From the NCBI GenBank assembly GCA_020441905.1, contig JAGRLG010000024.1:17308-81307 (forward strand): a DNA stretch of 64,000 nt, given 5' to 3'. Shown here in pieces: positions 34,736 to 64,000 of this stretch. How positions within the stretch are numbered: the stretch's first letter is position 1; every line of letters starts with the position of its first letter. The notes beneath the pieces were generated by a model that did no database searches, had not been told where the DNA came from, and worked only from the letters and a program-made list of their open reading frames with translations. The stretch is from Rhodobiaceae bacterium (GTDB lineage Bacteria > Pseudomonadota > Alphaproteobacteria > Rhizobiales > NORP267). The position numbers and the translations under genes are program-made.

Positions 34736-38057
<3,322 letters not shown>

Positions 38058-39657: not shown

Positions 39658-39661
39658 CGCC

Positions 39662-40603: not shown

Positions 40604-40606
40604 CCC

Positions 40607-41407: not shown

Positions 41408-41441
41408 CGTGCCGGTCTGAATTCGGCTGGAGTGGCATTTC

Positions 41442-43877: not shown

Positions 43878-43907
43878 TTGACCATTGATCAGCACTATGC
43901 GCATAAT
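43878..43907 (+). promoter_or_regulatory. Candidate sigma-70-type promoter of the gentisate operon
   Basis: TTGACC (43878-43883), N18, CATAAT (43902-43907) in an AT-rich spacer about 117 nt upstream of ATG 44025. Confidence 0.35.
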
Positions 43908-44024
43908 ACTGACGAATTGGCGGCGAACGGCGGCGTGCGGCCGGGCGCGTCACACAGGCGTCCATCAGCAGACGCATCGATCAACAGGCGCATCAATCAA
44001 CAGGCGCACCGAAAGAGGCAAGAT

Positions 44025-45221: not shown

Positions 45222-45269
45222 CACGCCGGCAAGAAAGAAACGCAAAACCGACAGCGGAGCGAAACACCC

Positions 45270-46322: not shown

Positions 46323-46333
46323 CAAGGACAAAC

Positions 46334-47059: not shown

Positions 47060-47074
47060 GTTCAGGAGCGGGCA

Positions 47075-47647: not shown

Positions 47648-49843
47648 TCACCCTGCGGCGAAGCGCGCCTTGGCCTCGCGCCGGCGCGCATGAAGGATCG
47701 GCTCGGTATAGCCCGAGGGCTGCGCCCGGCCCTTGAACACCAGGTCGCAGGCAGCCTGAAAGGCAATGCTGGCGGCAAAATCCGGCGCCATCGGCCGGTA
47801 GGCCGGATCGCCAGCATTCTGCCGGTCAACCACCGCTGCCATGCGTTCCAGCACGTCCAATACCTGCTCGCGGCTGCAAATGCCGTGATGCAGCCAATTG
47901 GCGATATGCTGGCTCGAAATGCGCAAGGTCGCCCGGTCCTCCATCAGTGCCACATCGTCGATATCGGGCACCTTTGAGCATCCGATGCCCTGGTCGATCC
48001 AGCGCACCACATAGCCGAGGATGCCTTGCGCGTTGTTTTCCAGCTCGAGGCGGATTTCTTCGGCTGACAGGTTGGTGCCCGCCAGCAACGGCAAGGTCAG
48101 CAGGTCATCGAGACTGGGGCGCAGGTTTCTCGCCAGGTCCCGCTGCCGCGCCGCGACATCAACCTCATGGTAATGCATGGCATGGAGCACCGCCGCGGTG
48201 GGCGAGGGCACCCAGGCGCAATTGGCCCCGGCTTTGGGGTGGGCGATCTTTTCCGCCACCATCTGCGCCATCTCGTCGGGCTTGGCCCACATCCCCTTGC
48301 CGATCTGCGCCTTTCCGGAAAATCCCGCCGCCAGCCCGGCGGCAACGTTCCAGTCCTCATAGGCGCCGATCCATTTCTCATGGCGCATCGCCGCCTTGCG
48401 CACCACCGGCCCGGCCTCCATGTCGGTGTGGATCTCGTCGCCGGTGCGGTCGAGAAAGCCGGTATTGATGAAGACGATGCGCTCGCTCACGGCTCGAATG
48501 CAGGCCGAAAGGTTGACGCTGGTACGCCGCTCCTCGTCCATCACCCCGACCTTGATGGTGTTGCGCGCCAGGCCCAGCGCCTGCTCGGTCATGGCAAAGA
48601 GCTCGTTGGTAAAGGCGGCTTCCTCCGGCCCATGCAGCTTCGGCTTGACGATATAGATGCTGCCCGCGGCGCTGTTGCGCGGGCCGCTGTCGCGCCTCAG
48701 ATCGTGCAGCGCGCACAGGCTGGTGACCATGGCATCGAGAATCCCTTCCGGAATTTCCTGTCCCGAGGCATCGAGCACGGCGTCGGTGGTCATCAGCAAC
48801 CCGGTATTGCGAACCAGCATCAGGCTGCGCCCGGAAAGCTCCATTTCACCGCCGCCATCGGCGCGCCGGAAGCGCCGGTTGGCGGCAAGGCGGCGGGTCA
48901 TGGCCGCGCCATTCTTTTCCAGATTTTCCTCCAGCGTGCCCTGCATCAGCCCCAGCCAGTTGCGATAAGCCGCAACCTTGTCGGCGGCGTCCACCGCGGC
49001 GATGGAATCCTCGAAGTCCTGGATCGTCGTCAGCGCCGCCTCGAGCACGACATCCTTGACCCCGGCGGGATGGCTGGCGCCTATGGCGCTTTCGCGATCG
49101 ATGACGATCTCGATATGCAGGCCGTGATTGCGCGCCAGGAACACCGGCGCATCGGCGCTGCCGCCATAGCCGATAAACTGGTCTTCACGGGCCAGCCCGG
49201 TTGCCTCGTCATCGCCAAGGCGCACCACCAGTCGCGCCGCGCCGTCTTCGCCGCGCACCGCTTCATAGCCCACCGCCTCGCCATGGCTGCCCCGGGCCAG
49301 CGGCAGCGCCCGGTCGAGGAAGGCATTGGCCGCCGCGATGACCCGCGCCCCGCGCAGCGGGTTGTAGCGCTCGCCGCGCCGGCAGCCGCCGTCTTCGGAA
49401 ATGGCATTGCTGCCATAGAGCGCATCGAACAGGCTGCCCCAGCGCGCATTGGCGGCATTGAGGGCGAAGCGCGCGTTCATCACCGGCACCACCAGCTGCG
49501 GCCCGGCGATCGACGCGATCTCCGGATCGACCCGCCCGGTTGTGATTACATGGCGCTCGCCCTCTTCGCGCAAATATCCGATTTCGATGAGAAAGCGCCG
49601 ATAGGCCGCCGCATCGTGGGGCTGGCCGCGGCGCTCGCGGTGCCAGGCGTCTATCTTGTCCTGCAACCTGGCGCGCGTCGCCAAAAGCGCCTTGTTGCGC
49701 GGCCCCAGCGTTTCGACAATGCGCCGCAACCCGGTCCAGAATTCGCCGGCGCCGATACCTGTCCCCGGCACCGCCTCATTGGCTATGAACTCGTCCAGTT
49801 CGGGCGCGATCCTGAGACCGCCCCTTGTCACTCTGTCCGCCAT
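47648..49843 (-). CDS. glcB: Malate synthase G
   Basis: 731 aa. [20 protein letters not shown]..., [23 protein letters not shown] and [10 protein letters not shown] are canonical. Confidence 0.95.
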
Positions 49844-49900
49844 TTTCCCCCCTTGGTCGCAGCCATGGCCATGCCGTCCCGCCGGTGAACACGCCGGACC

Positions 49901-51019
49901 CTAGCCCCAGACCTCGGCCGCAACTTCGACAACCCGTTCAAGTTTCTGCCTCTGTATCTCAGGCGTGATCAGATTTCCATGTTCGGTGCTGGCAAAACCG
50001 CATTGAGGGCTGAGGCAGAGATTCTCCAGCGGCACGAATTTCGCGGCCTCGTCGATACGCCGCTTCAACTCATCCTTGGTTTCCACTTGCGGCACCTTGG
50101 TCGAAACCAGGCCGAGCACGACCTTCTTGTCCTTCGGCGCCAGCCGCAACGGTTCGAAGCCGCCCGCCCGCTCATCGTCATATTCGAGAAAGAAGCCATC
50201 GACCTTCATCGAGAAAATGGCTTCCGCCACCGCGTCATACCCTCCCGATGCCATCCACATGCTCTGGTAGTTACCGCGGCAGGTATGCACGGTGACGGCA
50301 AGATTCTCGCTGCGTGTCGCAAACAGCCCGTTGATGATTTCGGCGTAAAGATGGGGCAGGCGCGCCGGATCCTCGCCGTCGGCGCGCACGCGCTCCTGCA
50401 CTTGCGGATCACAAAGGCAGGCGAAGGAGACATCGTCGAATTGCAGATAGCGGCAGCCGGCAGCCTCGAGATCGGCGATCTCCGCCCGGTAGGCCGCGGT
50501 GACATCGGCCCAGAATTCGTCCATGTCCGGATAGGCCTTTTTGTCGACGATCTTGCGCCCGCCGCGCATATGCAGATAGGTCGGCGCCGGCATGCAGAAC
50601 TTGGCGGTGCGCGATGTTGCGCTTTGAAGGAATTTGAAATGGTCGAGCATGACCGGCCTGGAGCGGGAAACCTTGCCGGTGACCTCGATCATCGAGCCGG
50701 TTGAGCGTTGCTCGCCCTTCCTGTCCTTGAAGGTGACAGCGTAATTGGCCCCGGTCAGCTCGATCCCGTCGAAGCCGGTAAGAAAGTCGGTATGCCACAT
50801 GGCGCGGCGGAACTCGCCATCGGTGACGGAGTGCAGGCCGACCGATTCCTGGAGACGCACCGCCTCGCCAATGGCCTTGTCCTCGACGGCGGCCAGCTGC
50901 GCCCGGTCGATTTGGCCGGCGGCGAATTTGCGGCGCGCTTCGTGCACGGCCTTTGGCCGCAGCAGGCTGCCGACATGATCGGCGCGGAATGGCGGGCGGG
51001 CATTCTTGCTTTGTGACAC
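49901..51019 (-). CDS. Cobalamin-independent methionine synthase II family protein (MetE C-terminal-domain-like)
   Basis: GTG start at 51019 after AGGGAG. PFRADHVGSLLRP, TDGEFRR, HTCRGN and LSPQCGFAS zinc/substrate motifs. Confidence 0.8.
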   Translation of the reverse strand: MSQSKNARPPFRADHVGSLLRPKAVHEARRKFAAGQIDRAQLAAVEDKAIGEAVRLQESVGLHSVTDGEFRRAMWHTDFLTGFDGIELTGANYAVTFKDRKGEQRSTGSMIEVTGKVSRSRPVMLDHFKFLQSATSRTAKFCMPAPTYLHMRGGRKIVDKKAYPDMDEFWADVTAAYRAEIADLEAAGCRYLQFDDVSFACLCDPQVQERVRADGEDPARLPHLYAEIINGLFATRSENLAVTVHTCRGNYQSMWMASGGYDAVAEAIFSMKVDGFFLEYDDERAGGFEPLRLAPKDKKVVLGLVSTKVPQVETKDELKRRIDEAAKFVPLENLCLSPQCGFASTEHGNLITPEIQRQKLERVVEVAAEVWG

Positions 51020-51072
51020 GGCCAGGCTCCCTGTCTCGACGGCGCTGGCGCCATCTTAACGGGCAGGCGGGG

Positions 51073-51107
51073 AATTAGAAGAAGAACAAACAGCGCCAGG
51101 CGGCGCT
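51073..51107 (-). terminator. Candidate intrinsic terminator after the MEDS-BTAD regulator gene
   Basis: On the minus strand, directly after the stop codon: AGCGCC-GCCT-GGCGCT followed by GTTTGTTCTTCTTCT. The stem is only 6 bp. Confidence 0.45.
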
Positions 51108-51108
51108 C

Positions 51109-52899
51109 TCAGCCCATCAGCTGGCGGGCCAGATTCGCCGTCTCGCGCGCCGGCTCGCGATCCTCGAAGCGCTTCAGCGATTCCCGGCACAGCCGGTATT
51201 GCCGCTCCAGCGCGTCGAGCCGGCCGATCATGTGATAGGCGCGCATCGCTTCACGGTGCGCGCTCTCGGCGCAAGGATCGACCCTGAGCACGCGCTCGCA
51301 ATAGCTCAGCGCCAGCTTGGGATCGTTCATGGCGCGATGGATCGCCGCCGTGCAGGCCAGCATCTTGAGGTAGATCTCCTCGAGCCAGAAGCGCTGGCTC
51401 CAGCACCAGTCGCGCTCGGGGTCCTCGACATATTCGACCGGAATATCGGCGAACAGCGCCCCCGAATAGAGCCGTTCGGCGGCCATGTGGCAGGTCAGGG
51501 ACTGTTCGATCTCGCCAGCCTTGAGCAGTTGTTCGCCCTGGCGGCAGAACTGCTCGAAAACCGGCACATCGACCCAGGTGCCCTCGGGCAGGGTCAGGTA
51601 ATAGCGCCGGTTGCGGCTGACCAGATAGGGCGAATGGCGGCTGGACGACAATTCCGGGCTGAGCGCCATGCGCAGGCAATGCACGGTGTGATAGAGCCGG
51701 TTCAGGCTCTGGTTGAGATCGCTGGCCTCGGGCCACAGCAGATCGGCGGTTTCCTCGACGCTGGCGCCCTTGGCCCCCCTTTGCAGCAGGAAGGCAAACA
51801 GGGTCTTGGTCTTGTAGGTCGCCCCCGAGCAGCGGTTCCATGCCACCGGATTGCCGTCATGGGAATAGATGCGCAATTCGCCAAGGCAGCGGATCTTCCA
51901 GCGCTTGAGCGGCTGGCCTTGCACCGCCGGCTCGCCGAACTGGTCGATTTCGAAATTGGGCCGCACCGGCCCCATGGTGGCCTGGGCCGGCGGGCGCCGC
52001 CGCGCCGAAGGTTCCTCGCCGGTCGCCGGAACAGGAGCGATAACCGGCTTGGCGGCGGATATCGCAGCTGGCGGAGCAGCGAAGCCGTCCCCCCGCAGCA
52101 CGGTTGCCGCCTCCGGCCCCGCCGCCGGCTGGGCGCCGCTCTCGCGCAGCACCCCAAGCCACCAGTCCAGCTTCTTCGCCGCGTCGCCGCTGAGAAACAC
52201 CGGCGGCGGCAGGAAGTAGGGATTGCGCCGCGCCTCGCCCGCATCCAGCAGCGCCGGATGGGTGCGCAAGGCGTCGAGCAGCACATTGGCGGGAAACAAT
52301 TCCCGACTGTAGAGGCAGACGATTTTCAGCGGTGCCTTTTCGGCCAGTGCGTGCAGCCCGGCTTCAAGTTCGCCGAGATTGGCGAGCCCGCTCGGCGCTT
52401 CCAGCATCCACGACATGTCGATCAGCACCAGCAGGCCGCGAAACCCTTCGCCGACGGCCCCCTCGCACAGGGCCTGCAACTTGTTGACCACGGTGGTGAC
52501 ACAAACCGGCGCCGCGCGCACGGCGAACAGATCCTCGGCGCTGGAAATGGTGCCGGGCCTCCCGGCTTCCCGGCACAGCGGCGCCAGCTTGTCGCGGTGG
52601 GCGGCGGAGTCGAACAGGCCGAGCCAGCGCATGCCCCCAAGTTCCCGCGGCCGCGTCAGGGCAGCACAGTGGCGCAGCAGGTCGTCGCTATTTTCATAGA
52701 TGGTGCAGAAATGCCGGTGGCCGCCATCGAGGCCCTTTGCCGGAACGGATTCGCGGCGCGGCGCGGCGGAGGATTCGCCGCCCGCCTCGCGCCCCGGTGC
52801 CTCGGCGAGGTATCCTGCCGCGCGCGATACCACCGGCGCGGCGGCGCGCTGACGTGATTTCTTGATGCCAGCACTACTCATAATACCTGACGACGCCAC
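51109..52899 (-). CDS. Transcriptional regulator with MEDS-like N-domain, SARP/OmpR-type winged helix and BTAD domain
   Basis: N-terminal part GHRHFCTIYENSDDLL...GLLVLIDMSWML...KIVCLYS resembles MEDS/DcmR-type sensory domains. An A/P-rich linker follows. Then WKIRCLGELRIYSHDGNPVAW...LFAFLL...ETADLLWPE...LNRLYHTVHCLRMAL (wHTH), then TPR-like BTAD (...AHREAMRAYHMIGRLDALERQYRLCRESL). Start uncertain: GTG 52899 or ATG 52881. Confidence 0.65.
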   Translation of the reverse strand: MASSGIMSSAGIKKSRQRAAAPVVSRAAGYLAEAPGREAGGESSAAPRRESVPAKGLDGGHRHFCTIYENSDDLLRHCAALTRPRELGGMRWLGLFDSAAHRDKLAPLCREAGRPGTISSAEDLFAVRAAPVCVTTVVNKLQALCEGAVGEGFRGLLVLIDMSWMLEAPSGLANLGELEAGLHALAEKAPLKIVCLYSRELFPANVLLDALRTHPALLDAGEARRNPYFLPPPVFLSGDAAKKLDWWLGVLRESGAQPAAGPEAATVLRGDGFAAPPAAISAAKPVIAPVPATGEEPSARRRPPAQATMGPVRPNFEIDQFGEPAVQGQPLKRWKIRCLGELRIYSHDGNPVAWNRCSGATYKTKTLFAFLLQRGAKGASVEETADLLWPEASDLNQSLNRLYHTVHCLRMALSPELSSSRHSPYLVSRNRRYYLTLPEGTWVDVPVFEQFCRQGEQLLKAGEIEQSLTCHMAAERLYSGALFADIPVEYVEDPERDWCWSQRFWLEEIYLKMLACTAAIHRAMNDPKLALSYCERVLRVDPCAESAHREAMRAYHMIGRLDALERQYRLCRESLKRFEDREPARETANLARQLMG

Positions 52900-53266: not shown

Positions 53267-54916
53267 ATGCTCGAAGGGTGCACCCCATGGCCGGAAGAAT
53301 TCGCTTCCCGTTATCGCCAACGCGGCTATTGGCGGGGGCAAACCGTCCCCCAGGCCATCTTCGAGGTCATCGCGCGCCATGGTAGCAAAACCGCCATCGT
53401 CTATGGCGGCCGGCGCATCAGCTATTTTGAACTTGGCCAAAGGGTCGGCGCCATGGCGCGCGGCCTGATGCGCCACGGCATCAAGCCGCGCGAGCGCGTC
53501 GTCCTGCAATTGCCCAACAGCCCCGAATTCCTCGTCGCCTTTCTTGCCCTCCAGCAAGCCGGCGCCATTCCGGTGCTCGCCCTGCCCGCCCACCGCCAGG
53601 CCGAAATCGGCCATTTCATCCGCCATGCCGGCGCCGTCGCCTATATCGGCGCCGATATCGACCGCGGCTTCGACTTCCGCGCCATGGCCGACGAGATACT
53701 GCGCCGCGAAACCAGCCTCGCCCACGTCTTCATTAACGGCGCGCCCAATCCCGGCCAGGTGGCGCTGGACGCGTTGATGGCGGCGGACGACGAAACGCCG
53801 CTCCCCGAAATCGGCGCCGGCGATATTGCCCTCATGCTGCTCTCCGGCGGCACCACGGCGCTGCCCAAGCTGATCCCCCGCACCCATGACGACTATGTCT
53901 ACAATTTCCGCCAGAGCGGTGCCGTCTCCGGTTTCGATGACGCCACCGTCTATCTTGCCATCCTGCCCCTGGCCCATAATTTCGCCCTCGGCTCGCCCGG
54001 CATTCTCGCCACCCTGGCCTATGGCGGCACCATCGTCATGTCCGCCGAAACCAGGGCCGATGATGTCTTTCCGCTGATCGAGCGCGAAAGGATCTCGGTG
54101 GTGTGCGGCGCCGTGCCGCTGGCCATCGCCTGGCTCAACTCGGACGTACCGGCGCGCCATGACCTGTCCTCGGTCCGCCTTTTCATCAATGGCGGCGCCC
54201 GCCTTGCGCCGGAACTGCGCCAGCGCCTGGAGGAGATGTTTTCCTGCACCTATCAGGAAAGCTTCGGCACCGCCGAAGGCCTGCTCAACCAGACCCGCCT
54301 CGACGATCCGGCGCCGATCCGCTTCGAAAGCTCGGGCCGCCCGATCTCGGAAGCCGACGAGATCCGCATCGTCGACGACGAGGACCGCGACGTGCCCGAC
54401 GGCACGCCTGGCGAGTTGATCTGCCGCGGCCCCTACACCATTCGCGGCTATTACAACGCGCCCGAAATCAACGCCGCCGCCTTCACCGAAGACGGCTTCT
54501 ACCGCACCGGCGACATGGTCAAGCGCAACAACGGCTCTCTCTATGTCGAGGGCCGCAAGAAGGACCTCATCAATCGCGGCGGCGAGAAGATCTCGTCGGA
54601 AGAGGTCGAGAACCTGATCTACACCAACCCCAAGGTGAAAGGCGTCTGCGTCGTCGCCATGCCCGATGCCATGTTTGGCGAGAAGGCCTGCGCCTTCCTC
54701 ATTCCCAGGGACGGCGAAACCATGACTTTCGAGGAACTGGTCGCCCATCTGGCAAAATGCAACATCGCCAAGTTCAAGCTGCCCGAGCGCCTCGAGATCG
54801 TCGATACCTTCCCCACCAGCCCGGCCGGCAAGATCCTGCGCAAGGACCTGCGCAAGATCATCGCCGACAAGATCGCCGCCGAACGGGCAGGTGGCGGGCA
54901 GGCAGGTTTGAGCTAG
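53267..54916 (+). CDS. Aryl-acid adenylating enzyme, EntE/DhbE-like ((2,3-dihydroxy)benzoate/salicylate-AMP ligase type)
   Basis: CTPWPEEFASRYRQRGYW..., LLSGGTTALPKLIPRTHDDYVYN, YRTGDMV and GRKKDLINRGGEKIS are ANL-superfamily cores with the EntE/DhbE-type variants. Confidence 0.8.
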   Translation: MLEGCTPWPEEFASRYRQRGYWRGQTVPQAIFEVIARHGSKTAIVYGGRRISYFELGQRVGAMARGLMRHGIKPRERVVLQLPNSPEFLVAFLALQQAGAIPVLALPAHRQAEIGHFIRHAGAVAYIGADIDRGFDFRAMADEILRRETSLAHVFINGAPNPGQVALDALMAADDETPLPEIGAGDIALMLLSGGTTALPKLIPRTHDDYVYNFRQSGAVSGFDDATVYLAILPLAHNFALGSPGILATLAYGGTIVMSAETRADDVFPLIERERISVVCGAVPLAIAWLNSDVPARHDLSSVRLFINGGARLAPELRQRLEEMFSCTYQESFGTAEGLLNQTRLDDPAPIRFESSGRPISEADEIRIVDDEDRDVPDGTPGELICRGPYTIRGYYNAPEINAAAFTEDGFYRTGDMVKRNNGSLYVEGRKKDLINRGGEKISSEEVENLIYTNPKVKGVCVVAMPDAMFGEKACAFLIPRDGETMTFEELVAHLAKCNIAKFKLPERLEIVDTFPTSPAGKILRKDLRKIIADKIAAERAGGGQAGLS

Positions 54917-55119: not shown

Positions 55120-55905
55120 ATGTCGGACAAGATTTTCGAAGGTCAGCACGCTGTGGTAACCGGCGGATCGCGCGGCATCGGCGCCGCCATTGCCGAAACC
55201 CTGGCCCGCCACGGCGCCATGGTGACCATCATGGGCCGCAGCATCGCCACGCTCGATACCCGCGCCAGGGAAATGAGCGCGGCCAGCGGCGGCCAGGTCG
55301 CCGGCTGCGCCGTCGATCTTGGCGACCCGGCCTCGATCGATCATGCCTTCGACAATCTGAGCGGCGATTTTCCCGCGCCTTCCATTCTTGTCAACAATGC
55401 CGGCCTTGCCCTCTCGGCGCCCTTTTCCAGGACCGATCTCGATTTCTGGAACAAGATCCTTGGCGTCGACCTGACCGGCGCCTTCCTGTGCATCCGCAAG
55501 GTGCTGCCGGCGATGACCAAGGCCGGCCACGGCCGCATCGTCAACATCTCCTCCACCGCCGGCCTCAAGGGCTATCCCTATGTCAGCGCCTATTGCGCCG
55601 CCAAGCACGGCCTGATCGGCCTCACCCGTTCCCTGGCGCTGGAAACCGCCCATAAGGGGGTCACCGTAAATTCCGTCTGCCCCGGCTATACCGACACCGA
55701 CATCGTCCGCGACACCATCGCCAATATCGTCAACAAGACCGGCCGCTCGGCCGAGGACGCCCTCGCCGAACTGGTCAAGCACAACCCGCAGAGCCGCCTC
55801 ATCCAGCCCGCGGAGATCGCCGAGGCCGTGGTCTGGCTTTGCCGCCCCGAATCCGCCTCCGTCACCGGCCAGTCCATTGCCGTTGCCGGAGGGGAGGTCA
55901 TGTAA
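55120..55905 (+). CDS. Classical SDR-family oxidoreductase
   Basis: VVTGGSRGIGAAIA (TGxxxGxG), NNAG, S...YxxxK (YVSAYCAAKHG) and PGYTDT. Confidence 0.85.
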   Translation: MSDKIFEGQHAVVTGGSRGIGAAIAETLARHGAMVTIMGRSIATLDTRAREMSAASGGQVAGCAVDLGDPASIDHAFDNLSGDFPAPSILVNNAGLALSAPFSRTDLDFWNKILGVDLTGAFLCIRKVLPAMTKAGHGRIVNISSTAGLKGYPYVSAYCAAKHGLIGLTRSLALETAHKGVTVNSVCPGYTDTDIVRDTIANIVNKTGRSAEDALAELVKHNPQSRLIQPAEIAEAVVWLCRPESASVTGQSIAVAGGEVM

Positions 55906-56402
55906 TGGGCCGCGCCGGGCGCCACGAAACGGACGGCGCCAGCGCGCTGGCGGTCTGGCTCAGGCTGCTGAGTTGCAGCAATACCGTCAGCCGCAACCTG
56001 CGCCTGAATCTGAAGAACGACTTTGACGTCACCCTGCCGCGCTTCGACCTCATGGCCCAGGTCGCGCGCGAGCCGCTCGGCCCCTCGCTTGGCGAGCTGT
56101 CGCGCCGTCTGCTCGTGACCAAGGGCAATATCACCGACCTCGTGGTGCGCCTGGAAAAGGACGGCCTCGTCGAGCGCCGCCGCGACGACAGCGACGGGCG
56201 GGTGCAGCATGTCTATCTGACCGCTGCCGGCCAGGACTTGCTGGACGCCATGCTGGCGGCCCACAACCGCTGGCTCAAGGAGATGCTGGCCGATCTCGAC
56301 GCAGGAAAAGTATCGAGTCTCTATCAATTGCTCGGTGATCTCAGGCAGGCGCTTCACAGCGGCGGGGAAACCGAGGACGAGGTGGCAGCCGCCGCCCAAT
56401 AG
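55905..56402 (+). CDS. MarR-family transcriptional regulator
   Basis: ATG overlaps the SDR stop (TAATG). LPRFDLMAQVAREPLGPSLGELSRRLLVTKGNITDLVVRLEKDGLVERRRDDSDGR. Confidence 0.8.
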   Translation: MGRAGRHETDGASALAVWLRLLSCSNTVSRNLRLNLKNDFDVTLPRFDLMAQVAREPLGPSLGELSRRLLVTKGNITDLVVRLEKDGLVERRRDDSDGRVQHVYLTAAGQDLLDAMLAAHNRWLKEMLADLDAGKVSSLYQLLGDLRQALHSGGETEDEVAAAAQ

Positions 56403-56470: not shown

Positions 56471-57898
56471 ATGAAACTCCTCGAGCCGATCGATATCAAC
56501 GGAATGAAGGTGCCCAACCGGATAATGGTTCCGGCCATGGTGACGCGCCTGTCGGGCAGCGACGGCTTCGTCAACAAGGACATTACCGACCGCTATGTGC
56601 GCTATGCCGCCGGCGGCACCGGTTTGATCGTCGTCGAGGCCATGGCCATCCATCAGTCCAATTCAGGGCCGCTGCTGCGCATCAGCGACGACAAATACAT
56701 CCCCGGCCTGTCCGACCTGGTGAAGAAGATCCACGACACCTCGGATTCCAAGGTGGTGCCGCAGATCATCCATTTCCTGAAGATCGCGCGCTCGGGCTGG
56801 CGCCAGACCCTCGACATGCTCTCGCTCGCCGATATCGAACTCATCATCGAGCAATTCGGCGACGCCGTGGCCAGGGCGAGGGAAGCCGGTTTCGACGGCG
56901 CCGAGTTGCATTCGGCCCACGCCTATACGCTGGCTTCCTTCATGTCGCGCGCCAATCCGCGCAACGACGATTACGGGCGCTCGCTGGAAGGCCGCCTGCA
57001 CATGATCGGCAAGGTGATGGAAAATGTGCGCAGGAAGGCGGGCAAGGACTTTCCCGTCGGCGTCCGCTTTCTCGCCGATGAATACATCAAGGACGGCTAC
57101 AACATCACCGAGTCGCGCCTGATCGCGCTGCGCCTCGCCCAGCTCGGCTATGACTATCTGTCGATCTCGGTCGGCGGCAAATTCGAGGACGCCATCCACA
57201 AGGAAGGCGAGGTGCCCTATCCCTACACCGGCTATTCCGGCGACCGCTGCATGCCCGGCGACTGGTTCGCGCCCGCCCTGCACGCCCATCTTGGCGGCGA
57301 GATCAAGTCCTTCATCAATTCTAGGGGCTACAACACCCCGGTCATCGTCGCCGGCAAGATTTCCGATCCTGAAATCGCCGACAGGCTGATCGCCGACGGC
57401 ACAGTCGACATGGTGGCCATCGCCCGCGGCCTGCTCGCCGACCCCGACTGGGTGCGCAAGATCAAGGAGAACCAGCGCGATCACATCATCCAGTGCGACT
57501 ATTGCAACTGGTGCAAGCATCTCGACGGCACCCATCAGGAGGTGCGCTGCATCCTGTGGCCCAAGGAGGATATGCAGGCCCCGGTCTACAATGTCTCGGC
57601 GACACCCCCTGCCTGGGGCGCCGAGGGCGCCGGCATTACCGCCAAATTCGAGAAAGGCGCCGTCACCCTGGCGTGGAAGAAGGCGGCCGGCAATGTCGAG
57701 AGCTATGACGTCTACCGCGCCGACGACAGCGGCGAGGTCCATGCCACCAAGGCCGTGCGCGCCGTGCGCTGGTCCGACAAGACCGCCATCGCCGGCATGC
57801 GCTATACCTATTACGTCCGCCCGCGCGATGAATTCGGCAATGCCGGCCCGGCTTCCGACAAGGTCGAGATCGAGGCCCGGCTGGCTGAAATGGCGTAA
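56471..57898 (+). CDS. Old-Yellow-Enzyme-family flavin oxidoreductase with 4-Cys cluster motif and C-terminal Fn3-like domain
   Basis: The N-terminal TIM-barrel pattern (INGMKVPNRIMVPAM...YAAGGTGLIVVEA...AGFDGAELHSAHAYTLASF) is followed by CDYCNWCKHLDGTHQEVRC, a C-x2-C-x2-C-x11-C spacing. The last ~100 aa carry an Fn3-like pattern (VTLAWKK...VESYDVYRAD...YTYYVRPRDEFGN). No FAD/NAD(P)H Rossmann domains are present. Confidence 0.75.
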   Translation: MKLLEPIDINGMKVPNRIMVPAMVTRLSGSDGFVNKDITDRYVRYAAGGTGLIVVEAMAIHQSNSGPLLRISDDKYIPGLSDLVKKIHDTSDSKVVPQIIHFLKIARSGWRQTLDMLSLADIELIIEQFGDAVARAREAGFDGAELHSAHAYTLASFMSRANPRNDDYGRSLEGRLHMIGKVMENVRRKAGKDFPVGVRFLADEYIKDGYNITESRLIALRLAQLGYDYLSISVGGKFEDAIHKEGEVPYPYTGYSGDRCMPGDWFAPALHAHLGGEIKSFINSRGYNTPVIVAGKISDPEIADRLIADGTVDMVAIARGLLADPDWVRKIKENQRDHIIQCDYCNWCKHLDGTHQEVRCILWPKEDMQAPVYNVSATPPAWGAEGAGITAKFEKGAVTLAWKKAAGNVESYDVYRADDSGEVHATKAVRAVRWSDKTAIAGMRYTYYVRPRDEFGNAGPASDKVEIEARLAEMA

Positions 57899-58384: not shown

Positions 58385-59698
58385 ATGGGCAAGAACAGTA
58401 AGACAAAAGCAACCGGGGGCGGCCTGTCGCGGCGCACCCTGCTTCAGGCAACAGGCACCCTGGCCGCCAGCGGCCTCGCCACGTCCGTTTTCCGGACCGG
58501 CCCGGCCTTTGCCGCCAGCAGCACTATCAAGCTTGGTTTCGTCTCGCCGCGCACCGGCCCGCTGGCGCCTTTCGCCGAGGCCGATGCCTTCGTCATCGAA
58601 GCGGTCAACGCCTTGTTCAAGACCGGCCTCGACGTCGGCGGCAAGAAGCATGCCGTCGAGATCATCGTCAAGGACAGCCAATCCAACCCCAACCGCGCTG
58701 CCGAGGTGGCGTCCGACCTCATCCTCAAGGATGAAGTGGCCCTGATGCTGGTGTCCTCGACGCCAGAGACCACCAACCCGGTCGGCGACCAGTGCGAGGT
58801 CAATGGCGTGCCCTGCATTTCCACCGTGGCGCCCTGGCAGCCCTGGTTCTTCACCCGTGGCGGCAAGCCGGAAACCGGCTTTGAATGGACCTACCACTTC
58901 TTCTGGGGCCTCGAGGACATCATCCAGGTCTTCACCGACATGTGGGGTTCGCTGGACACCAACAAGACCGTCGGCGCCATCTGGCCCAATGACGGCGACG
59001 GCAATGCCTGGGGCGATCCCAAGCTCGGCTTCCCGCCGGTCCTCGGCAAGCAGGGCTACCGGATCGTCGATCCGGGCCGCTACCAGAATCTGAGCGACGA
59101 TTTTTCCGCCCATATCGGCGAGTTCAAGAAGAACAATGTCGAAATCCTGACCGGGGTGCCGATCCCGCCCGATTTCACCACCTTCTGGACCCAGGCGGCG
59201 CAACAGGGCTTCAAGCCCAAGATCGCCAGCGTCGGCAAGGCGCTGCTGTTCCCGGTCGCCCTCGAGGCACTGGGTGACCTTGGCACCGGCCTGTCCTCGG
59301 AAGTGTGGTGGACGCCTTCCCACCCCTTCGCCTCCTCGCTGAGCAAGCAGAGCTCGGCCGAGCTGGCGGCCGCTTTCGAGAAATCGACCGGCAAGCAATG
59401 GACCCAGCCCATCGGCTTTGCCCATGCCCTGTTCGAGATCGCCGCCGATGCCCTGAAGCGCGCCGGCGACATCACCAAGCCGGCCTCGGTGCGCGATGCC
59501 GTTGCCGCCACCGATCTCGACACCATTGTCGGCAAGGTCAAGTGGGGCGGCGGCGGGCCGTTCAAGAATGTCGCCAAGACGCCGCTTGTCGGCGGCCAGT
59601 GGCGCCGCGGCAAGACGCACAAATACGACCTTGCCGTGGTCTCCAACACCATGGCGCCGAATATTCCCGCCGAGGGCAAGCTGGAACCGATCGCCTGA
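58385..59698 (+). CDS. Tat-exported ABC-type periplasmic solute-binding protein (Leu/Ile/Val-binding-protein-like family)
   Basis: GGGGAGAG RBS. SRRTLLQATGTLAASGL...AFAAS is a twin-arginine signal. IKLGFVSPRTGPLAPFAE is a typical type I SBP start. No permease or ATPase genes are adjacent. Confidence 0.8.
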   Translation: MGKNSKTKATGGGLSRRTLLQATGTLAASGLATSVFRTGPAFAASSTIKLGFVSPRTGPLAPFAEADAFVIEAVNALFKTGLDVGGKKHAVEIIVKDSQSNPNRAAEVASDLILKDEVALMLVSSTPETTNPVGDQCEVNGVPCISTVAPWQPWFFTRGGKPETGFEWTYHFFWGLEDIIQVFTDMWGSLDTNKTVGAIWPNDGDGNAWGDPKLGFPPVLGKQGYRIVDPGRYQNLSDDFSAHIGEFKKNNVEILTGVPIPPDFTTFWTQAAQQGFKPKIASVGKALLFPVALEALGDLGTGLSSEVWWTPSHPFASSLSKQSSAELAAAFEKSTGKQWTQPIGFAHALFEIAADALKRAGDITKPASVRDAVAATDLDTIVGKVKWGGGGPFKNVAKTPLVGGQWRRGKTHKYDLAVVSNTMAPNIPAEGKLEPIA

Positions 59699-59784
59699 TC
59701 TCCAGCCCTGGCCGGATGCGATATGGCGCGGTCCCGATCCGGGGCCGCGCCTTCATCTTGTTGGCCGACCTTTTGCCGCCTTGC

Positions 59785-60567
59785 CTACCCCTCGCGCGGC
59801 ACGATCTTCTCGCGCATCATCGCCACCATTTCGGCGCCCCCGGCATAGAGCGCCTCGGGGATCTTGGAGCGGTCCATCAGCGCTGCAAGATCGACCGGCT
59901 TTCCCGATGCATAGACCATCACCGCGCCGACCCGCTCCAGCAGCAGCGAGGGCAGCGCCAGGTCCCACAGATTGATCGAACGGTCGAAGAACAATCCGCG
60001 CACCGCCCCCTTGGTCAGCAGGCAGAGCTGGTAGATCGGCGCCCCAAGGCAATAGACCCGGCCCGGAAAGTCGACCGAAAAGCTCTTGTGGTGGTTGGTG
60101 GGCCCGAAAATGAAGCTGTTGGGCTTAAGCTCAAGGCCAAGATCGGGTTGCAGCGGTGCCTCGTTGCAAAAGGCGCCGCCTTCCGGTCCGGCCCAGAACA
60201 ATTCCCCGGTCACCGGATTGATCGCGGCGCCGGCCACCGGGCGCGCGCCGTCCATCAGGCAAACTGCCGGCGTCCATAGCGGCATCCGGGCGGCAAAGGC
60301 CCGGGTGCCGTCCAGCGCGTCGACGATCCAGGAGCAGGTGGCACCGTTTCGCGGCGCCCGGTTCTTATCCGTTTCCTCGCCGATATAGCCATAATCCGGC
60401 GCCAGCGCCGCCAGCGCCGCTTTCAGGAAAGCCTCGATCGCCTCGTCGGCCTCGGTGACAAAGGTCTGGTCGCTTTTGAGCCTGGGCGCCACCTTGCCGT
60501 AATGGCGCCGGCCAAGCTCGCCGGCTTCGAGCACAATCCTCTTCAGCTCTTCGATGTCGATGCTCAC
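59785..60567 (-). CDS. Inositol-monophosphatase-family phosphatase
   Basis: GTG start after GGAGGGG. TEADEAIE, IGEE and WIVDALDGTRAF metal-binding motifs. Confidence 0.8.
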   Translation of the reverse strand: MSIDIEELKRIVLEAGELGRRHYGKVAPRLKSDQTFVTEADEAIEAFLKAALAALAPDYGYIGEETDKNRAPRNGATCSWIVDALDGTRAFAARMPLWTPAVCLMDGARPVAGAAINPVTGELFWAGPEGGAFCNEAPLQPDLGLELKPNSFIFGPTNHHKSFSVDFPGRVYCLGAPIYQLCLLTKGAVRGLFFDRSINLWDLALPSLLLERVGAVMVYASGKPVDLAALMDRSKIPEALYAGGAEMVAMMREKIVPREG

Positions 60568-60603: not shown

Positions 60604-62295
60604 TTACGACGCCCGCTCCAGGATTTCCACCACGCCGGCGGCGCCGTCGATCCTGACCAGGTCGCCATTGCGGATCGAATTGGTGGCGTTCCAGGTGCCC
60701 ACCACCGCCGGAATGCCATATTCGCGCGCCGCGATGGCGGCATGGGTCAGCATGCCCCCGGTATCGGTCACCACCCCGCCGATCTTCAGGAAAAGCGGCG
60801 TCCAGGCGGTGCCGGTAAAGGGCGCCACCAGGATCTCGCCCGACTGGACCTCGGCAAAGCCGGAAAAATCGGTCACCACCCGCGCCCGGCCCTCGACCAC
60901 GCCTGCCGAACCGGCAAAGCCGGTCAGCCGTTCGGCCACCACCTTCTCGCCCTTGGGATGCAGGATCTCGTCGATGATGCCGAACACCTTGATGGCGATG
61001 GGATCGGTCATCGTCTTGGGCACATTGCCAAGCGTCAGCGGCGCGTCCTCGTGCTTGGCCTCTTCCCAGTCGGCCTTGCGCTCGTCGATCAGCGCCGGCA
61101 CCATCGCGGCGTGATGGTAGAGCGCGATCTTCTCGCTGCGCCCCAGATCGAGAATGATCTCCTTCAGATCGCTCATGGACAGGAAGAAGATATCCTTGGC
61201 CTCCTTGATGAGGCCGATGCCGGCCAGCCTTGTGCCGACGTTGATCAGGAAGTCATGCAGCGCCGCCGTCGATCCCTGATCGATGTAGAAGCCGTGATCC
61301 TCCTGATAGGCATAGACCTTCTGGCCGATTTCGAGCATGGAGCGGAATTTCTCCAGATCTCCCGGCGGCACCTTTTTCTCGAACTCGGAGATTGCCTTTT
61401 CGCGTGCGGCAAAGACGCCCTCGCGCGCCTGGTAATAGTCCCAGCCATCCTCCATACGCTTGAAGTAGCTCTTGATGGTATTGAGCACCGGGCTGGGGTC
61501 CTCGCGCCAGGTCGAGAACAGCACGTCGAGATGGGCGGCATTGATGCGATTGCCATAGGCTTCCAGAAAATCGGCGAATTCGCCAAGCCAGCCCGCAGCT
61601 TCCTTGATGCCGCCCAGCACCCGCAGGAGGTTTTCCGTCGGCGTCGCCATGAAGATTTCCTGAAGGCCGCGCTCGCGGGCCGCCAGCGCCAGTTTCCAGA
61701 TTTCCTCGTCGGTACGCGCCGGCATGGATTCGAAGCCCTGCAGCATGGCGATAAAGCCGCCTTCGTCGAGATCCATGCCCTTGCAATAGCCCTCGAACTC
61801 CAGATAGAGCGTGTCGGCCGGATACATCAGGATGAAGTGGATCTCCCAATTGCGCCGGTTGAGGTCGTCGGCGCGGCGCACCTGTTCGATCAGCTCGGCC
61901 CAGGACGCATTGGCGACATCGAAGCCGCGCATGGCCGCGTTGTTGGCCTTCACCTCCTCGATATAGTCGGCATAGAAGCTGTCCCAGTTGTTGCGGCAGT
62001 TATCGACATATTTCGCAAATTCCTGAGCCCGCTCGGCAACCTCGCTTTCATCCTTGATCAGCGCGAAGCCGAGATAGACCCGGCCCTTGTGGATCTTGAC
62101 ATGGGCGCCCTTGGAGGGCGGCAGCTGGGTTTCCTCGGCGGCGACGTGATAGCCCCAGGCGTGGTGCTTCTGCACCGTCGTCATCCCCATCGGGGACATC
62201 GGATTGGGCTGGTGCAGGTCGTCGCGAAACCAGAAAATGTCGGCGTCCCTTTCGGGACGCAATGTGCGCAATGCCGAGATGCTGCGATCTTTCAT
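60604..62295 (-). CDS. PEP-utilising-enzyme family protein: large N-terminal domain of unknown specificity plus C-terminal swivelling phosphohistidine domain (PpsA-of-phenylphosphate-synthase-like architecture)
   Basis: The C-terminus GSAGVVEGRARVV...GEILVAPFTGTAWTPLF...GGVVTDTGGMLTHAAIAAREYGIPAVVG is the PEP-utilizers mobile domain with the phospho-His. The N-terminal ~430 aa has no ATP-grasp motifs. GGGAAGGAA RBS. Confidence 0.65.
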   Translation of the reverse strand: MKDRSISALRTLRPERDADIFWFRDDLHQPNPMSPMGMTTVQKHHAWGYHVAAEETQLPPSKGAHVKIHKGRVYLGFALIKDESEVAERAQEFAKYVDNCRNNWDSFYADYIEEVKANNAAMRGFDVANASWAELIEQVRRADDLNRRNWEIHFILMYPADTLYLEFEGYCKGMDLDEGGFIAMLQGFESMPARTDEEIWKLALAARERGLQEIFMATPTENLLRVLGGIKEAAGWLGEFADFLEAYGNRINAAHLDVLFSTWREDPSPVLNTIKSYFKRMEDGWDYYQAREGVFAAREKAISEFEKKVPPGDLEKFRSMLEIGQKVYAYQEDHGFYIDQGSTAALHDFLINVGTRLAGIGLIKEAKDIFFLSMSDLKEIILDLGRSEKIALYHHAAMVPALIDERKADWEEAKHEDAPLTLGNVPKTMTDPIAIKVFGIIDEILHPKGEKVVAERLTGFAGSAGVVEGRARVVTDFSGFAEVQSGEILVAPFTGTAWTPLFLKIGGVVTDTGGMLTHAAIAAREYGIPAVVGTWNATNSIRNGDLVRIDGAAGVVEILERAS

Positions 62296-62520
62296 GGCCG
62301 TTCCTTCCCCTTACCCCACCGGCGCCGGGGCTGACGCCGGAAACGGGCGATAACCGCCGCGCGCCTTTTGGTGAAGGCCGCGGCACACCCGAATTATTCT
62401 TGGATCGACGCCGGTCTTTTCGCTGGCCGGTTCTTAGATCTATTTGAATTCCATGATTATTTTCGGGCGGGGCATAGTCGGCGCCCCGCCCTTTCAGTAT
62501 AGCTCAAGCCGTTGCCTGTA

Positions 62521-63588
62521 CTAGGCGGCTTCCACCTTGCGCCCGCCGAGGACCATGTTCTGCGGCATCTCCGGCAGACCGAAGAATTTCTCGGCATTGC
62601 CGCCGAGCAGCAGGTTGCGGTCCTTGTCCGACAGCTTGGTTTCGTCGGCCAGGTCCATGATCGACTTGATGGCGCCTTCCGGATCTCCGACCCGGTGGGC
62701 ATAGTCGGTGCCGATCATGAGGTGCTCGACGCCAACCCATTCCATGGCGCATTTCATCGCCGGCAGGTAGAAGCTGGTGGTGTCCGGCCACACCCGCTCG
62801 CGATAGGTCTGCTCCGGGTTCTGGGAGAGCTCGAGGCCCCATTCCTTGGAATAGCCCTTCCAGGAGTCCTTGAGGCGGCGCACCAGATAGGGCGCGATGC
62901 CGCCCAGATGCGAATGGATCATCCGCAGGTTGGGATATTTCTCGAACACGCCATTGAAGATCAGGCTGATCACCGCAAGCGTCGAATCCACCGTATAGCC
63001 ATAGAGCTGATAGGGGATGCGCGACTTGTCCATGGCGGCTGCGGTCAGCGGCACCGTGGGATGCATCAGAACGGGGAGCTTGAGCTTGTTGATGGTGGCG
63101 AAGACCTCGTCGAATTTGGGATCGAACATGACGTCGCCCTGGCAGTTCGAGAACATCTGGATGCCCTTGACCCCCAGTTCCTTGTGGCAGCGCTCCAGCT
63201 CCTTGCAGGCCTCCTCCGGGTTCTGATAGGGCAGTGCGGCCATGGTGAAGATGCGGTGGGGATATTTGGCCGCTTCCTCGGCGAAATGGTCGTTGATTTT
63301 CTTGGCCCAGTAGACGCCGGCCTCCGGTTCGAGAAGTTCCGGACCCGGAACGGTCTTCGAAATGACCTGGGTATCCATGCCGGCGGCATCGAGGTCGCGG
63401 ATGCGGGCGTCCATGTCGTAATGGCCGGGGCGGTCGATATGGGCGACGATGACGTCGCCGGCCTTCATGACATAGGAGTTCTCGCCGGTCTTGATCGCCC
63501 GGCACCAGCGGCCCTGCCGGCTCTCCAGATAATCGATATATTCTCGCGGGTAGAAGTGATTGTGAACGTCGACCGTTCTCTGCACCAT
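62521..63588 (-). CDS. Amidohydrolase_2 (ACMSD-type) metal-dependent decarboxylase family protein
   Basis: Start moved to ATG 63588 (AAGGAGA plus 6 nt). VDVHNHFYP, HPTVP, MIHSHLGG and IGTDYAH are metal/active-site positions typical of non-oxidative aromatic acid decarboxylases. Confidence 0.8.
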   Translation of the reverse strand: MVQRTVDVHNHFYPREYIDYLESRQGRWCRAIKTGENSYVMKAGDVIVAHIDRPGHYDMDARIRDLDAAGMDTQVISKTVPGPELLEPEAGVYWAKKINDHFAEEAAKYPHRIFTMAALPYQNPEEACKELERCHKELGVKGIQMFSNCQGDVMFDPKFDEVFATINKLKLPVLMHPTVPLTAAAMDKSRIPYQLYGYTVDSTLAVISLIFNGVFEKYPNLRMIHSHLGGIAPYLVRRLKDSWKGYSKEWGLELSQNPEQTYRERVWPDTTSFYLPAMKCAMEWVGVEHLMIGTDYAHRVGDPEGAIKSIMDLADETKLSDKDRNLLLGGNAEKFFGLPEMPQNMVLGGRKVEAA

Positions 63589-63623
63589 GACACTCTCCTT
63601 GGGTAGGGTTGCGTTGTATTCCT

Positions 63624-64000
63624 TCATTCATCCAGATCGCGGATCTTGCGTGCCTGGAGGATGAACAGCTGTCCGTCCTGGAACGCCCATTCGATATCCG
63701 CGGGAAAGTTGAACTGTTCTTCGATGAGGCGGCCGACCCGGCACAGCTCGCCAAGCTGCGCCTCGCTCAAGGTCGGCTGCCCCGCCTTGTCGGCGGGCAC
63801 TGGCACTTCCATGCGGCCCTGGCCCTGGCCGTCATCCATCACCACCATCAGGTTCTTGTTGGCGATCGCCTTCTGGCGCAGCGCGCCGCTGGCCTTGTCG
63901 AGCAGATAGGAATCGGTCATCGAACGGCCTGAAACCACCGATTCCCCGATCCCCCAATTGGACTCGATCATGCAGTCGCCGCGCGACTTGGTGATCGGAT
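63624..64000 (-). CDS. PEP/pyruvate-binding (PPDK_N, ATP-grasp) domain protein, C-terminal part only; gene start lies beyond the window end
   Basis: The frame is open to nt 64000. WGIGESVVSG...SYLLDK...NFPADIEWAFQDGQLFILQARKI is the conserved C-terminal end of the nucleotide-binding domain of PEP synthase, phenylphosphate synthase subunit B and rifampicin phosphotransferase. Confidence 0.65.
   Translation of the reverse strand, partial: PITKSRGDCMIESNWGIGESVVSGRSMTDSYLLDKASGALRQKAIANKNLMVVMDDGQGQGRMEVPVPADKAGQPTLSEAQLGELCRVGRLIEEQFNFPADIEWAFQDGQLFILQARKIRDLDE

Follow-up and report, generated by a model that had tools for sequence, protein, structure and literature searches.

A conserved gene module of a two-component dikinase, an ACMSD-type amidohydrolase and a phosphatase in an alphaproteobacterial contig, with a possible role in ATP-driven carboxylation

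In a stretch of 64,000 nucleotides from a Rhodobiaceae bacterium (GCA_020441905.1, contig JAGRLG010000024.1, positions 17,308 to 81,307; hereafter the window), a minus-strand operon encodes an ATP-grasp subunit and a phosphohistidine (His) subunit of a dikinase, an amidohydrolase of the aminocarboxymuconate-semialdehyde decarboxylase (ACMSD) family and a phosphatase. We hold with high confidence that these four genes form one functional dikinase/lyase/phosphatase module; the identities of the parts, their intact catalytic residues and their co-location can be read directly from the genomes analysed. By analogy with known pathways, the module could perform an ATP-driven carboxylation at the start of a breakdown pathway, the amidohydrolase replacing a UbiD-type or biotin-type carboxylase, a reading which we put forward tentatively, at somewhat short of an even chance.

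The window holds the 3' part of the ATP-grasp gene (124 aa; 63624 to beyond 64000, minus strand; Pfam PPDK_N, E 7e-27), and in an identical public contig (L001) the full gene spans 7704-8672 and encodes 322 aa. Next to it lies the gene of the ACMSD-family Amidohydro_2 enzyme, a proposed (de)carboxylase of 355 aa (62521-63588, minus strand; Pfam Amidohydro_2, E 3e-41). The longest open reading frame (ORF) of this gene begins with the ATG at 63627, encodes 368 aa and overlaps the upstream stop by 4 nt. The ATG at 63588 has a ribosome-binding site, AAGGAGAG, just 5' of it and yields 355 aa with a gap of 35 nt to the ATP-grasp gene; the start in a relative with 88% identity (L090) is also called at 355 aa. 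A spacer of 225 nt (62296-62520) separates the amidohydrolase gene from that of the His subunit (563 aa; 60604-62295, minus strand; PEP-utilizers, E 2e-23; motif GGMLTHAAIAAREYGIPAVVG). The gene for the IMPase-family phosphatase begins 36 nt downstream of the latter and is the final gene of the operon (260 aa; 59785-60567, minus strand; Inositol_P, E 1e-27). An earlier note on this DNA had described these features from the letters alone; ORF listing, domain scans and a hairpin search recovered all of them where it had placed them. Its family assignments and the layout that it had likened to the PpsA/PpsB split of phenylphosphate synthase proved right as well.

Judged by sequence and predicted structure, the ATP-grasp and His subunits are a two-component small-molecule dikinase of the PpsAB/CreHI/HpeHI kind and not a phosphoenolpyruvate (PEP) synthase or PPDK. 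This subfamily was recently defined around the three named systems (PMC12167813). With its 322 aa, the stand-alone ATP-grasp subunit has the size expected of such a dikinase (roughly 320-390 aa). The C-terminal swivel domain (PF00391) had been taken for the sole recognisable catalytic element of the His subunit, but the rest of the protein can be recognised as well: the N-terminal 440 or so residues carry the precomputed Pfam domain PF27448 (Rph_4th), and the AlphaFold model of the protein (pLDDT 75) matches rifampin phosphotransferase (Rph) over about 590 columns (Foldseek E 7e-17). For PPDK, enzyme I and pyruvate kinase, agreement with the same model is confined to the swivel domain of about 110 residues. 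The swivel motif GGMLTH518AAIAAR puts H518 within about 50 residues of the C terminus of the 563-aa chain. Among 16 homologues of the His subunit the catalytic-His motif GGMLTHAAIAAR is invariant, in agreement with the conserved motif reported for PEP synthase, Rph and HpeH (PMC12167813).

Automatic annotations name homologues of these proteins "pyruvate, water dikinase" and "aminocarboxymuconate-semialdehyde decarboxylase". Furthermore, the PDB matches of the ATP-grasp fragment are the ATP-grasp domains of PEP synthase (the best single match), of Rph and of a 387-aa chain (9goj). The genes might accordingly be chance neighbours with housekeeping duties: a split PEP synthase or PPDK of gluconeogenesis, an ACMSD of kynurenine or nitrobenzoate metabolism, and an inositol or histidinol phosphatase. 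However, the Pfam scan found no match to the PEP/pyruvate-binding TIM-barrel domain (PEP-utilizers_C) in either subunit, and the NCBIfam PEP synthase models scored 82-165 bits against cut-offs of 598-1063, so that none was reached. The pair was assigned to the two-component Rph type because of these scores, the lack of the TIM-barrel domain and the Rph-like His subunit. The phosphatase likewise lies below the cut-offs of the HisN, CysQ and SuhB equivalog models (NCBIfam), an ACMSD substrate-site arginine is an invariant histidine in the amidohydrolase, and the genes have stayed together as a set in at least seven phyla. Architecture and conserved linkage thus exclude the housekeeping explanation, to which we give a negligible probability.

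For comparison with characterised dikinases, one annotated plasmid-borne example of each known kind was used (L087 for Pps, L088 for Hpe/Acv-like, L089 for Cre-like). The ATP-grasp subunit is 34-37% identical to the PpsB, CreI-like and HpeI-like subunits and the His subunit 26-30% identical to the PpsA, CreH-like and HpeH-like ones, whereas the comparators share 41-49% identity among themselves (43-45% for the counterparts of the His subunit). In a neighbour-joining tree the His-subunit family forms a clade of its own, apart from the characterised phenol kinases. Its Rph-like fold and the lack of the TIM-barrel domain set the His subunit outside PEP synthase and PPDK, a grouping with which would have refuted the proposal of the earlier note. 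Among 1.84 billion cluster representatives (50% identity), the family shrinks to a single representative at 54% identity; the next clusters, few in number, stand at 40-44%, and a broad range of others lies at about 30-37%. The plasmid collection held no close homologue, its matches being the named comparators only, at up to 32% identity. Some Acidobacteria metagenome-assembled genomes (MAGs; L009/L029, L024/L025, L027/L032) encode two paralogous His subunits each, one of which adjoins the ATP-grasp and amidohydrolase genes. In such MAGs several substrate-binding subunits may share one ATP-grasp subunit.

The amidohydrolase has ACMSD as its best PDB match (E 3e-38, 27-28% identity), and its other solved relatives are LigW and the gamma-resorcylate, 2,3-dihydroxybenzoate (2,3-DHB), iso-orotate and salicylate decarboxylases. 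Its structural model (pLDDT 86) led to the same group, with ACMSD, IDCase and the gamma-resorcylate and salicylate decarboxylases as top Foldseek matches (TM 0.74-0.87, for ACMSD 0.81-0.87) and with nearly all leading structural neighbours being non-oxidative decarboxylases. The motifs VDVHNHF, HSHLGG and GTDYAH are present. The metal ligands H22, H24, H189 and D308 and the catalytic H240 (368-aa numbering) are kept in all 49 family members in which the residue is present, as is R251, which corresponds to Arg235 of human ACMSD. At the position of ACMSD Arg47, the 49 members have an invariant His. The family is 57-78% conserved across phyla. The enzyme does not correspond to ACMSD proper (EC 4.1.1.45), Arg47 being replaced and its neighbours being dikinase and phosphatase rather than kynurenine-pathway genes; nor is it, given the low identity to ACMSD and the exchanged arginine, an orthologue of a characterised decarboxylase that works alone, as the earlier note had allowed it might be. 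Sequence and model together indicate a competent enzyme of the ACMSD-type decarboxylase fold with a different substrate. One related locus (L076) encodes a second amidohydrolase paralogue, 41% identical, next to the His subunit.

Subsequently, we followed the genes into other genomes. Homologues of the His subunit at 60-88% identity number in the hundreds, and a scan with one genome per species gave 80 loci. These belong to Xanthobacteraceae, other Alphaproteobacteria, Rhodospirillales (including marine ones), Acidobacteria, Chloroflexi, Actinomycetota (Gaiellales, Thermoleophilia), Desulfobacterota, Syntrophia, Peptococcaceae/Pelotomaculum (Firmicutes) and one archaeon, with just three cultured carriers, Roseiarcus fermentans, Desulfocarbo indianensis and Pelotomaculum terephthalicicum. 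Linkage was counted in the 51 loci with at least 14 kb of sequence, for genes within 7 kb on either side: the amidohydrolase gene was found in 36, the ATP-grasp gene in 33, a phosphatase gene in 37 and all of them in 30. The reverse test, starting from the amidohydrolase, met dikinase genes in all four contexts checked, one of them a bare four-gene module. The genes proposed to act together thus show strong linkage elsewhere too. A PpsC-like CBS protein, for which the earlier note had suggested a search beyond position 64000, is absent from L001, and no CBS or UbiD genes were found on L001 or in the 80 related loci. As a separate observation (L094:12874-13641), one long contig has the gene of an HpcH/HpaI-family aldolase behind a bare four-gene module and that of an AraC regulator ahead of it, while genes for a ligase or an old yellow enzyme (OYE) are missing from the vicinity.

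Two operon types could be told apart by tblastn and ORF clustering. Type A, that of the window, consists of the genes for the ATP-grasp subunit, amidohydrolase, His subunit and IMPase, often with Liv-type binding protein and ABC transporter genes, a ligase, an OYE, a short-chain dehydrogenase (SDR) and a MEDS-BTAD regulator nearby. Type B, of anaerobes, encodes the ATP-grasp subunit, the amidohydrolase, a HAD hydrolase, a protein of about 220 aa (U222) and the His subunit. Its companions are OYE, ligase, SDR, acyl-CoA dehydrogenase (ACAD), enoyl-CoA hydratase and 3-hydroxyacyl-CoA dehydrogenase genes and sigma-54 regulators, in addition to a PaaY/gamma-carbonic-anhydrase-like protein and sometimes an aldehyde:ferredoxin oxidoreductase. 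The sigma-54 regulators of the Desulfobacterota operons have the AAA+ core alone in common with the pps regulator. The operon in L092 runs from ATP-grasp, Amidohydro_2, HAD and U216 genes through OYE, ligase, SDR, ACAD and binding protein to the first ABC genes; the His subunit seems to be missing there because the operon is long, and it lies further on the same contig (L040). Type-B loci also encode a very hydrophobic protein of about 360-380 aa (F21) without Pfam or NCBIfam match, which is probably a membrane transporter.

The phosphatase of the window belongs to the IMPase family (Inositol_P 97.5 bits, cut-off 27), with the metal-binding motifs IGEE, DALDGT and WD in its translation. An IMPase gene follows the His subunit in 27 related loci, and in the other operon type a HAD gene with U222 takes its place. 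The two families never occur together in one locus, with L072 as a possible exception (U222 and a 29%-identical IMPase-like gene). The role is thus kept while the protein family is swapped, a non-orthologous replacement, and such an exchange at constant role speaks strongly for dephosphorylation as a part of the module. The idea that the IMPase-family enzyme hydrolyses a phosphoester consequently gains weight, the phosphatase gene being constant in the operon and its family varying by lineage. U222 (about 205-222 aa) always stands directly after the HAD gene, in L065, L067, L092, L093 and about 25 more type-B loci. It has no Pfam or NCBIfam match, and in profile comparisons U222 and the HAD protein showed no relation to PpsC, PpcD or the HD phosphohydrolase, apart from a generic HAD-HAD match.

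From these parts we infer a reaction sequence in which phosphorylation of a hydroxyl, the direction of carboxylation, the order of the steps and the class of substrate are the proposed elements. ATP would be bound by the ATP-grasp subunit, and His518 of the swivel domain would be pyrophosphorylated and then phosphorylated. The swivel domain would bring the phosphate to the Rph-type domain, where the hydroxyl of a small phenolic or enolic substrate would be O-phosphorylated, the net dikinase reaction being ATP -> AMP + Pi + substrate-phosphate. The ACMSD-family metal-dependent C-C lyase could then add CO2 at the ortho or alpha carbon beside that oxygen, with the phosphatase (IMPase here, HAD in anaerobes) stripping the phosphate either during carboxylation, in the manner of PpcD, or later, in the manner of HpeD/CreD. 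The 2-hydroxy (or 2-oxo) acid formed would be thioesterified by the adjoining CoA ligase, which resembles DHB-AMP ligases, and the CoA ester might be handled by the OYE reductase and the SDR, elsewhere by acyl-CoA dehydrogenase, hydratase and dehydrogenase. Candidate substrates include simple phenols (phenol, catechol, hydroquinone and resorcinol), from which salicylate, 2,3-DHB, gentisate and resorcylates would arise, and also cyclic ketones or diones, which would react as their enols.

Metal-dependent decarboxylases of the amidohydrolase superfamily can attach CO2 to phenols in the position ortho to the hydroxyl, but only at 2-3 M bicarbonate, as the equilibrium is unfavourable (PMC6644310), and coupling to ATP would therefore make sense. 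Moreover, strict anaerobes (Syntrophus, Desulfobacterota, Pelotomaculum) keep the costly step from ATP to AMP, which would argue for an energy-requiring reaction. PaaY/gamma-carbonic-anhydrase-like genes in ten loci were counted as fitting carboxylation. If the proposal is carried further, the module might be a third kind of ATP-driven biological carboxylase, without biotin or prenylated FMN, that acts beside the oxygen of a phenol or cyclic enol; we consider this possible but less likely than not. The same doubt attaches to the extension that such a carboxylase is widespread in bacteria of soil, groundwater, sea and anoxic sediment, from aerobes to syntrophs.

Beyond what the earlier note had taken in, the cluster also includes the genes that converge on the operon from the plus strand (CoA ligase, SDR, MarR, OYE, binding protein). 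The AMP-forming ligase (53267-54916, plus strand) is closest to 2,3-dihydroxybenzoate-AMP ligases (TIGR02275, 559 bits, cut-off 724). The type-B ligase also finds its best match in TIGR02275, with 380 bits, and ligases occur in 26 related loci. In both operon types the ligase is thus nearest to ligases of ortho-hydroxy-aryl acids, which fits an ortho-hydroxy or 2-oxo acid product. The SDR gene (55120-55905, plus strand; adh_short, E 6e-56) has counterparts in 17 loci and is followed by a MarR-family regulator gene (55905-56402, plus strand; Pfam MarR/MarR_2; 165 aa on L001; also in L090 and L026). The OYE-family FMN oxidoreductase (56471-57898, plus strand; Oxidored_FMN, E 4e-44) has homologues in 18 related loci. 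Its best NCBIfam models, BaiCD and FadH-like, all stay below cut-off, and no solved relative was informative as to its substrate. Behind the FMN barrel it carries a Cys-rich motif of the Fe-S type (CDYCNWC...C) and a C-terminal extension of about 100 aa without Pfam match; the anaerobe-type OYEs of related operons are shorter (376-404 aa). The periplasmic solute-binding protein (Peripla_BP_6; 58385-59698, plus strand; Pfam E 4e-35) has homologues in 26 related loci (45-72% identity), mostly in the company of Liv-type ABC genes, and is not close to any solved protein with a defined ligand. A MEDS-BTAD transcriptional regulator (51109-52899, minus strand; Pfam MEDS and BTAD on L001 and L017) adjoins the cluster in six related alphaproteobacterial loci too (family F35).

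Several of these observations weigh against carboxylation. The solute-binding protein and ABC genes suggest import of a charged compound, e.g. an aromatic acid, and not of a diffusible phenol, and the characterised members of the subfamily of the amidohydrolase are all physiologically decarboxylases. The OYE, SDR and ACAD suggest CoA esters that are not aromatic, an awkward fit for simple phenol-derived products, and the ligases of the Chloroflexi and Actinomycetota loci are just 25-29% identical to that of the window. Furthermore, a separate phosphatase is not strictly needed if the phosphate leaves during carboxylation; its presence would suit equally well a pathway of the Cre/Hpe type that runs in the direction of decarboxylation. 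There, an imported hydroxy-aromatic (di)acid would be phosphorylated on its hydroxyl, the amidohydrolase would decarboxylate or otherwise change the phosphorylated intermediate, the phosphatase would free the hydroxyl and the ligase would activate the remaining acid. The next enzyme of the Cre and Hpe/Acv pathways indeed depends on the phosphate as a handle, which a dedicated phosphatase later takes off, and the linked binding protein and ABC transporter are suited to anions. However, decarboxylases of this family bind the metal and push electrons by way of the carboxylate and of the ortho hydroxyl or oxo group in its free form (PMC6644310), so phosphorylation of that oxygen should hinder decarboxylation. 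In addition, spending ATP to AMP on an exergonic decarboxylation would be hard to justify for syntrophs and sulfate reducers. We therefore regard this alternative as unlikely, yet as one to be taken seriously.

The OYE, the BadH-like SDR and the ACAD hint at a six-membered ring which either lacks aromaticity from the start or loses it. In a non-aromatic variant of ATP-driven carboxylation, the dikinase would phosphorylate the enolate of a cyclic ketone (cf. PEP synthase and pyruvate) and the amidohydrolase would yield a 2-oxocycloalkane carboxylate from the enol phosphate. The CoA ligase, BadH-like SDR, ACAD and hydratases would then open the ring and break it down, and OYE and SDR would supply the ketone from enones or alcohols. 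Cyclic enones are classical OYE substrates. The SDR of the Desulfobacterota (type B) operons has BadH (2-hydroxycyclohexanecarboxyl-CoA dehydrogenase) as its best model, with 271 bits, below cut-off, the ACAD resembles the cyclohexanecarboxyl-CoA, glutaryl-CoA and acryloyl-CoA dehydrogenase models, and operons of the Syntrophus type hold enoyl-CoA hydratase and 3-hydroxyacyl-CoA dehydrogenase genes. ACMSD itself, according to the title of one paper (PMC11650718), binds and tautomerises a beta-keto acid. On the other hand, every one of the cited family matches is below its curated cut-off, and the characterised two-component relatives all phosphorylate phenols and not enols. An enol phosphate would moreover lose its phosphate on carboxylation, and there would then be no explanation for the conserved phosphatase other than a role like that of PpcD. 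This variant is, in our view, improbable.

If ATP-driven carboxylation by the module is real, natural ATP coupling by way of an aryl phosphate or enol phosphate would reveal how cells overcome an equilibrium that also hampers the use of reversible amidohydrolase decarboxylases as "biological Kolbe-Schmitt" catalysts, for which they are wanted (PMC6644310). The four genes would then be a portable carboxylation module, relevant to CO2-fixing biocatalysis and anaerobic aromatic degradation, and would represent a new initiating reaction in phenolic or alicyclic catabolism. The module is widespread and highly conserved, and among the bacteria that carry it are abundant lineages with few cultured members (Xanthobacteraceae, Acidobacteria, Chloroflexi, Gaiellales, Desulfobacterota, Syntrophia). 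To our knowledge, the carboxylases of several anaerobic phenolic pathways (hydroquinone, catechol and resorcinol-type) have never been identified genetically. The module also extends the recently recognised subfamily of two-component small-molecule dikinases, of which very few are characterised among the 922 proteins found at E <= 1e-30 in the 50%-identity cluster library.

Within the operon, a GC stem-loop of 9-10 bp lies just 3' of the amidohydrolase stop (62465-62491), with the arms GGGCGGGGC (62465-62473) and GCCCCGCCC (62483-62491). The pairing of the two arms is unique in the window and occurred in none of 100 shuffles, and the hairpin forms in both the minimum free energy and the centroid fold. 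It alone stands out in the spacer, whose overall fold does not surpass that of shuffled sequences (z = -0.7). The hairpin was not called by the terminator scan because it lacks a U-tract, and the spacer showed no Rfam family match and no sigma-70-like promoter. A strong GC stem-loop is found at the same site in many type-A relatives (z of -3 to -6 in several), while the spacer sequences cannot be aligned among relatives and the sequence of the stem-loop is not conserved. The hairpin probably serves as an attenuator within the operon or as an RNA-stabilising end, so that the upstream and the downstream genes would be expressed at different levels. At the usual hairpin position in L076 (about 2242-2320), right after the amidohydrolase gene, stands a tandem 18-nt repeat (TCTCGGTTGAGATAGTAA). 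A second hairpin, of 12 GC-rich bp (59725-59751), separates the IMPase gene from the binding-protein gene that converges on it; this hairpin was scored as a terminator-like site in the scan and is likely a shared terminator.

The surroundings of the cluster hold further genes. On L001, 5' of the ATP-grasp gene, are those for an M42 peptidase, a GNAT plus ATP-grasp protein, an Asn-synthase-like protein and a methyltransferase, none of which is conserved beside the dikinase module in other genomes. These genes (L001:1360-7303, beyond position 64000), with their GNAT plus ATP-grasp fusion, resemble a separate small cluster for peptide or amide formation. Between the gentisate genes described below and the ligase, the minus strand (47648-52899) encodes malate synthase G, a 372-aa MetE-like (Meth_synt_2) protein and the MEDS-BTAD regulator. 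A complete-looking gentisate module (43878-47617, plus strand), 6-13 kb from the dikinase cluster, comprises a 3-hydroxybenzoate 6-monooxygenase (530 bits, cut-off 459), a gentisate 1,2-dioxygenase (544 bits, cut-off 442), a FAH-family hydrolase and a MarR regulator. It was set aside because the gene families found again in six or more of the 80 related loci do not include it, and a conversion of hydroquinone to gentisate suggested by these genes was dropped, their proximity being probably a coincidence. Further off (35640-42173, plus strand), a catalase-peroxidase-like gene (805 aa) is followed by genes for a circularly permuted ATP-grasp protein, an Alpha-E protein, a transglutaminase-like protein and a proteasome-type subunit.

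Among known systems, PpsAB(C) with PpcABCD (Thauera/Aromatoleum; here represented by ppsABC-ppcBDAG on a plasmid of Azoarcus sp. KH32C, L087) likewise has separate ATP-grasp and Rph-like His subunits, and in both systems the dikinase is encoded together with a C-C lyase and a phosphatase-family protein. PpsAB makes phenylphosphate, which Ppc carboxylates, and its phosphatase-family delta subunit is needed beyond the exchange-competent core (PMC6114531; PMC6644310). The likely common logic is that ATP-driven O-phosphorylation drives an unfavourable carboxylation, after which a CoA ligase acts. In contrast to this system, the module of the window has no PpsC CBS protein, an ACMSD-type amidohydrolase stands in for the UbiD-type PpcABC, the role of phosphatase falls to an IMPase or to a HAD protein other than PpcD (hhalign shows no relation), and the subunit genes are split by the lyase gene, whereas they are adjacent in pps. 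Identity is 26% for the His and 36% for the ATP-grasp subunit, and the subunits of the window fall outside the Pps/Cre/Hpe group.

While the earlier note had rightly named PpsAB and Rph as precedents, it had missed CreHI and HpeHI/AcvAB, in which a dikinase, an enzyme acting on the phospho-intermediate, a phosphatase and a CoA ligase are found. HpeHI/AcvAB with HpeCBA/AcvCDE and HpeD/AcvF (Rhodococcus GD02, Sphingobium SYK-6) presents the same series of roles, i.e. dikinase, carboxylating enzyme, phosphatase and CoA ligase; L088, from Rhizobium, is an Hpe/Acv-like cluster with biotin carboxylase and HAD hydrolase. The Hpe/Acv carboxylase takes the phosphorylated substrate only, and a dedicated phosphatase and CoA ligase then act (PMC9618137; PMC12624787). 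That carboxylase is biotin- and ATP-dependent and works on an acetyl side chain, whereas the cluster of the window encodes an amidohydrolase and no biotin genes; the His subunits are 30% and the ATP-grasp subunits 34% identical. The CreHI pathway of p-cresol (Corynebacterium/Rhodococcus; L089 from Rhodococcus) combines, as here, a two-component dikinase and a dedicated phosphohydrolase in one catabolic cluster, but its phosphorylated intermediate is oxidised by a P450 system and its phosphatase has an HD domain (identity 29% for the His and 37% for the ATP-grasp subunit). Rph (PDB 5fbs/5fbu/5hv1) matches in the fold of the substrate-binding and swivel parts and in domain order, and its ATP-grasp domain is homologous, but it is a single fused polypeptide, an antibiotic-resistance enzyme without lyase or phosphatase partners.

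The ACMSD, IDCase, gamma-resorcylate, 2,3-DHB, salicylate and 5-carboxyvanillate decarboxylases share with the amidohydrolase the (beta/alpha)8 fold, the HxH...H...D site, the catalytic His and one Arg; unlike it, they are not encoded with a kinase or phosphatase. Full-text literature searches found no description of the combination of dikinase, Amidohydro_2 enzyme and phosphatase. Papers on anaerobic benzene degradation, considered as a source, concern other gene clusters, and the amidohydrolases mentioned in papers on Geobacter and Desulfatiglans TRIP_1 are unrelated. Thus what is new in the module is the dikinase clade and the type of its partner enzyme; the parts come from known families, and the logic of the pathway has its precedents in the systems above.

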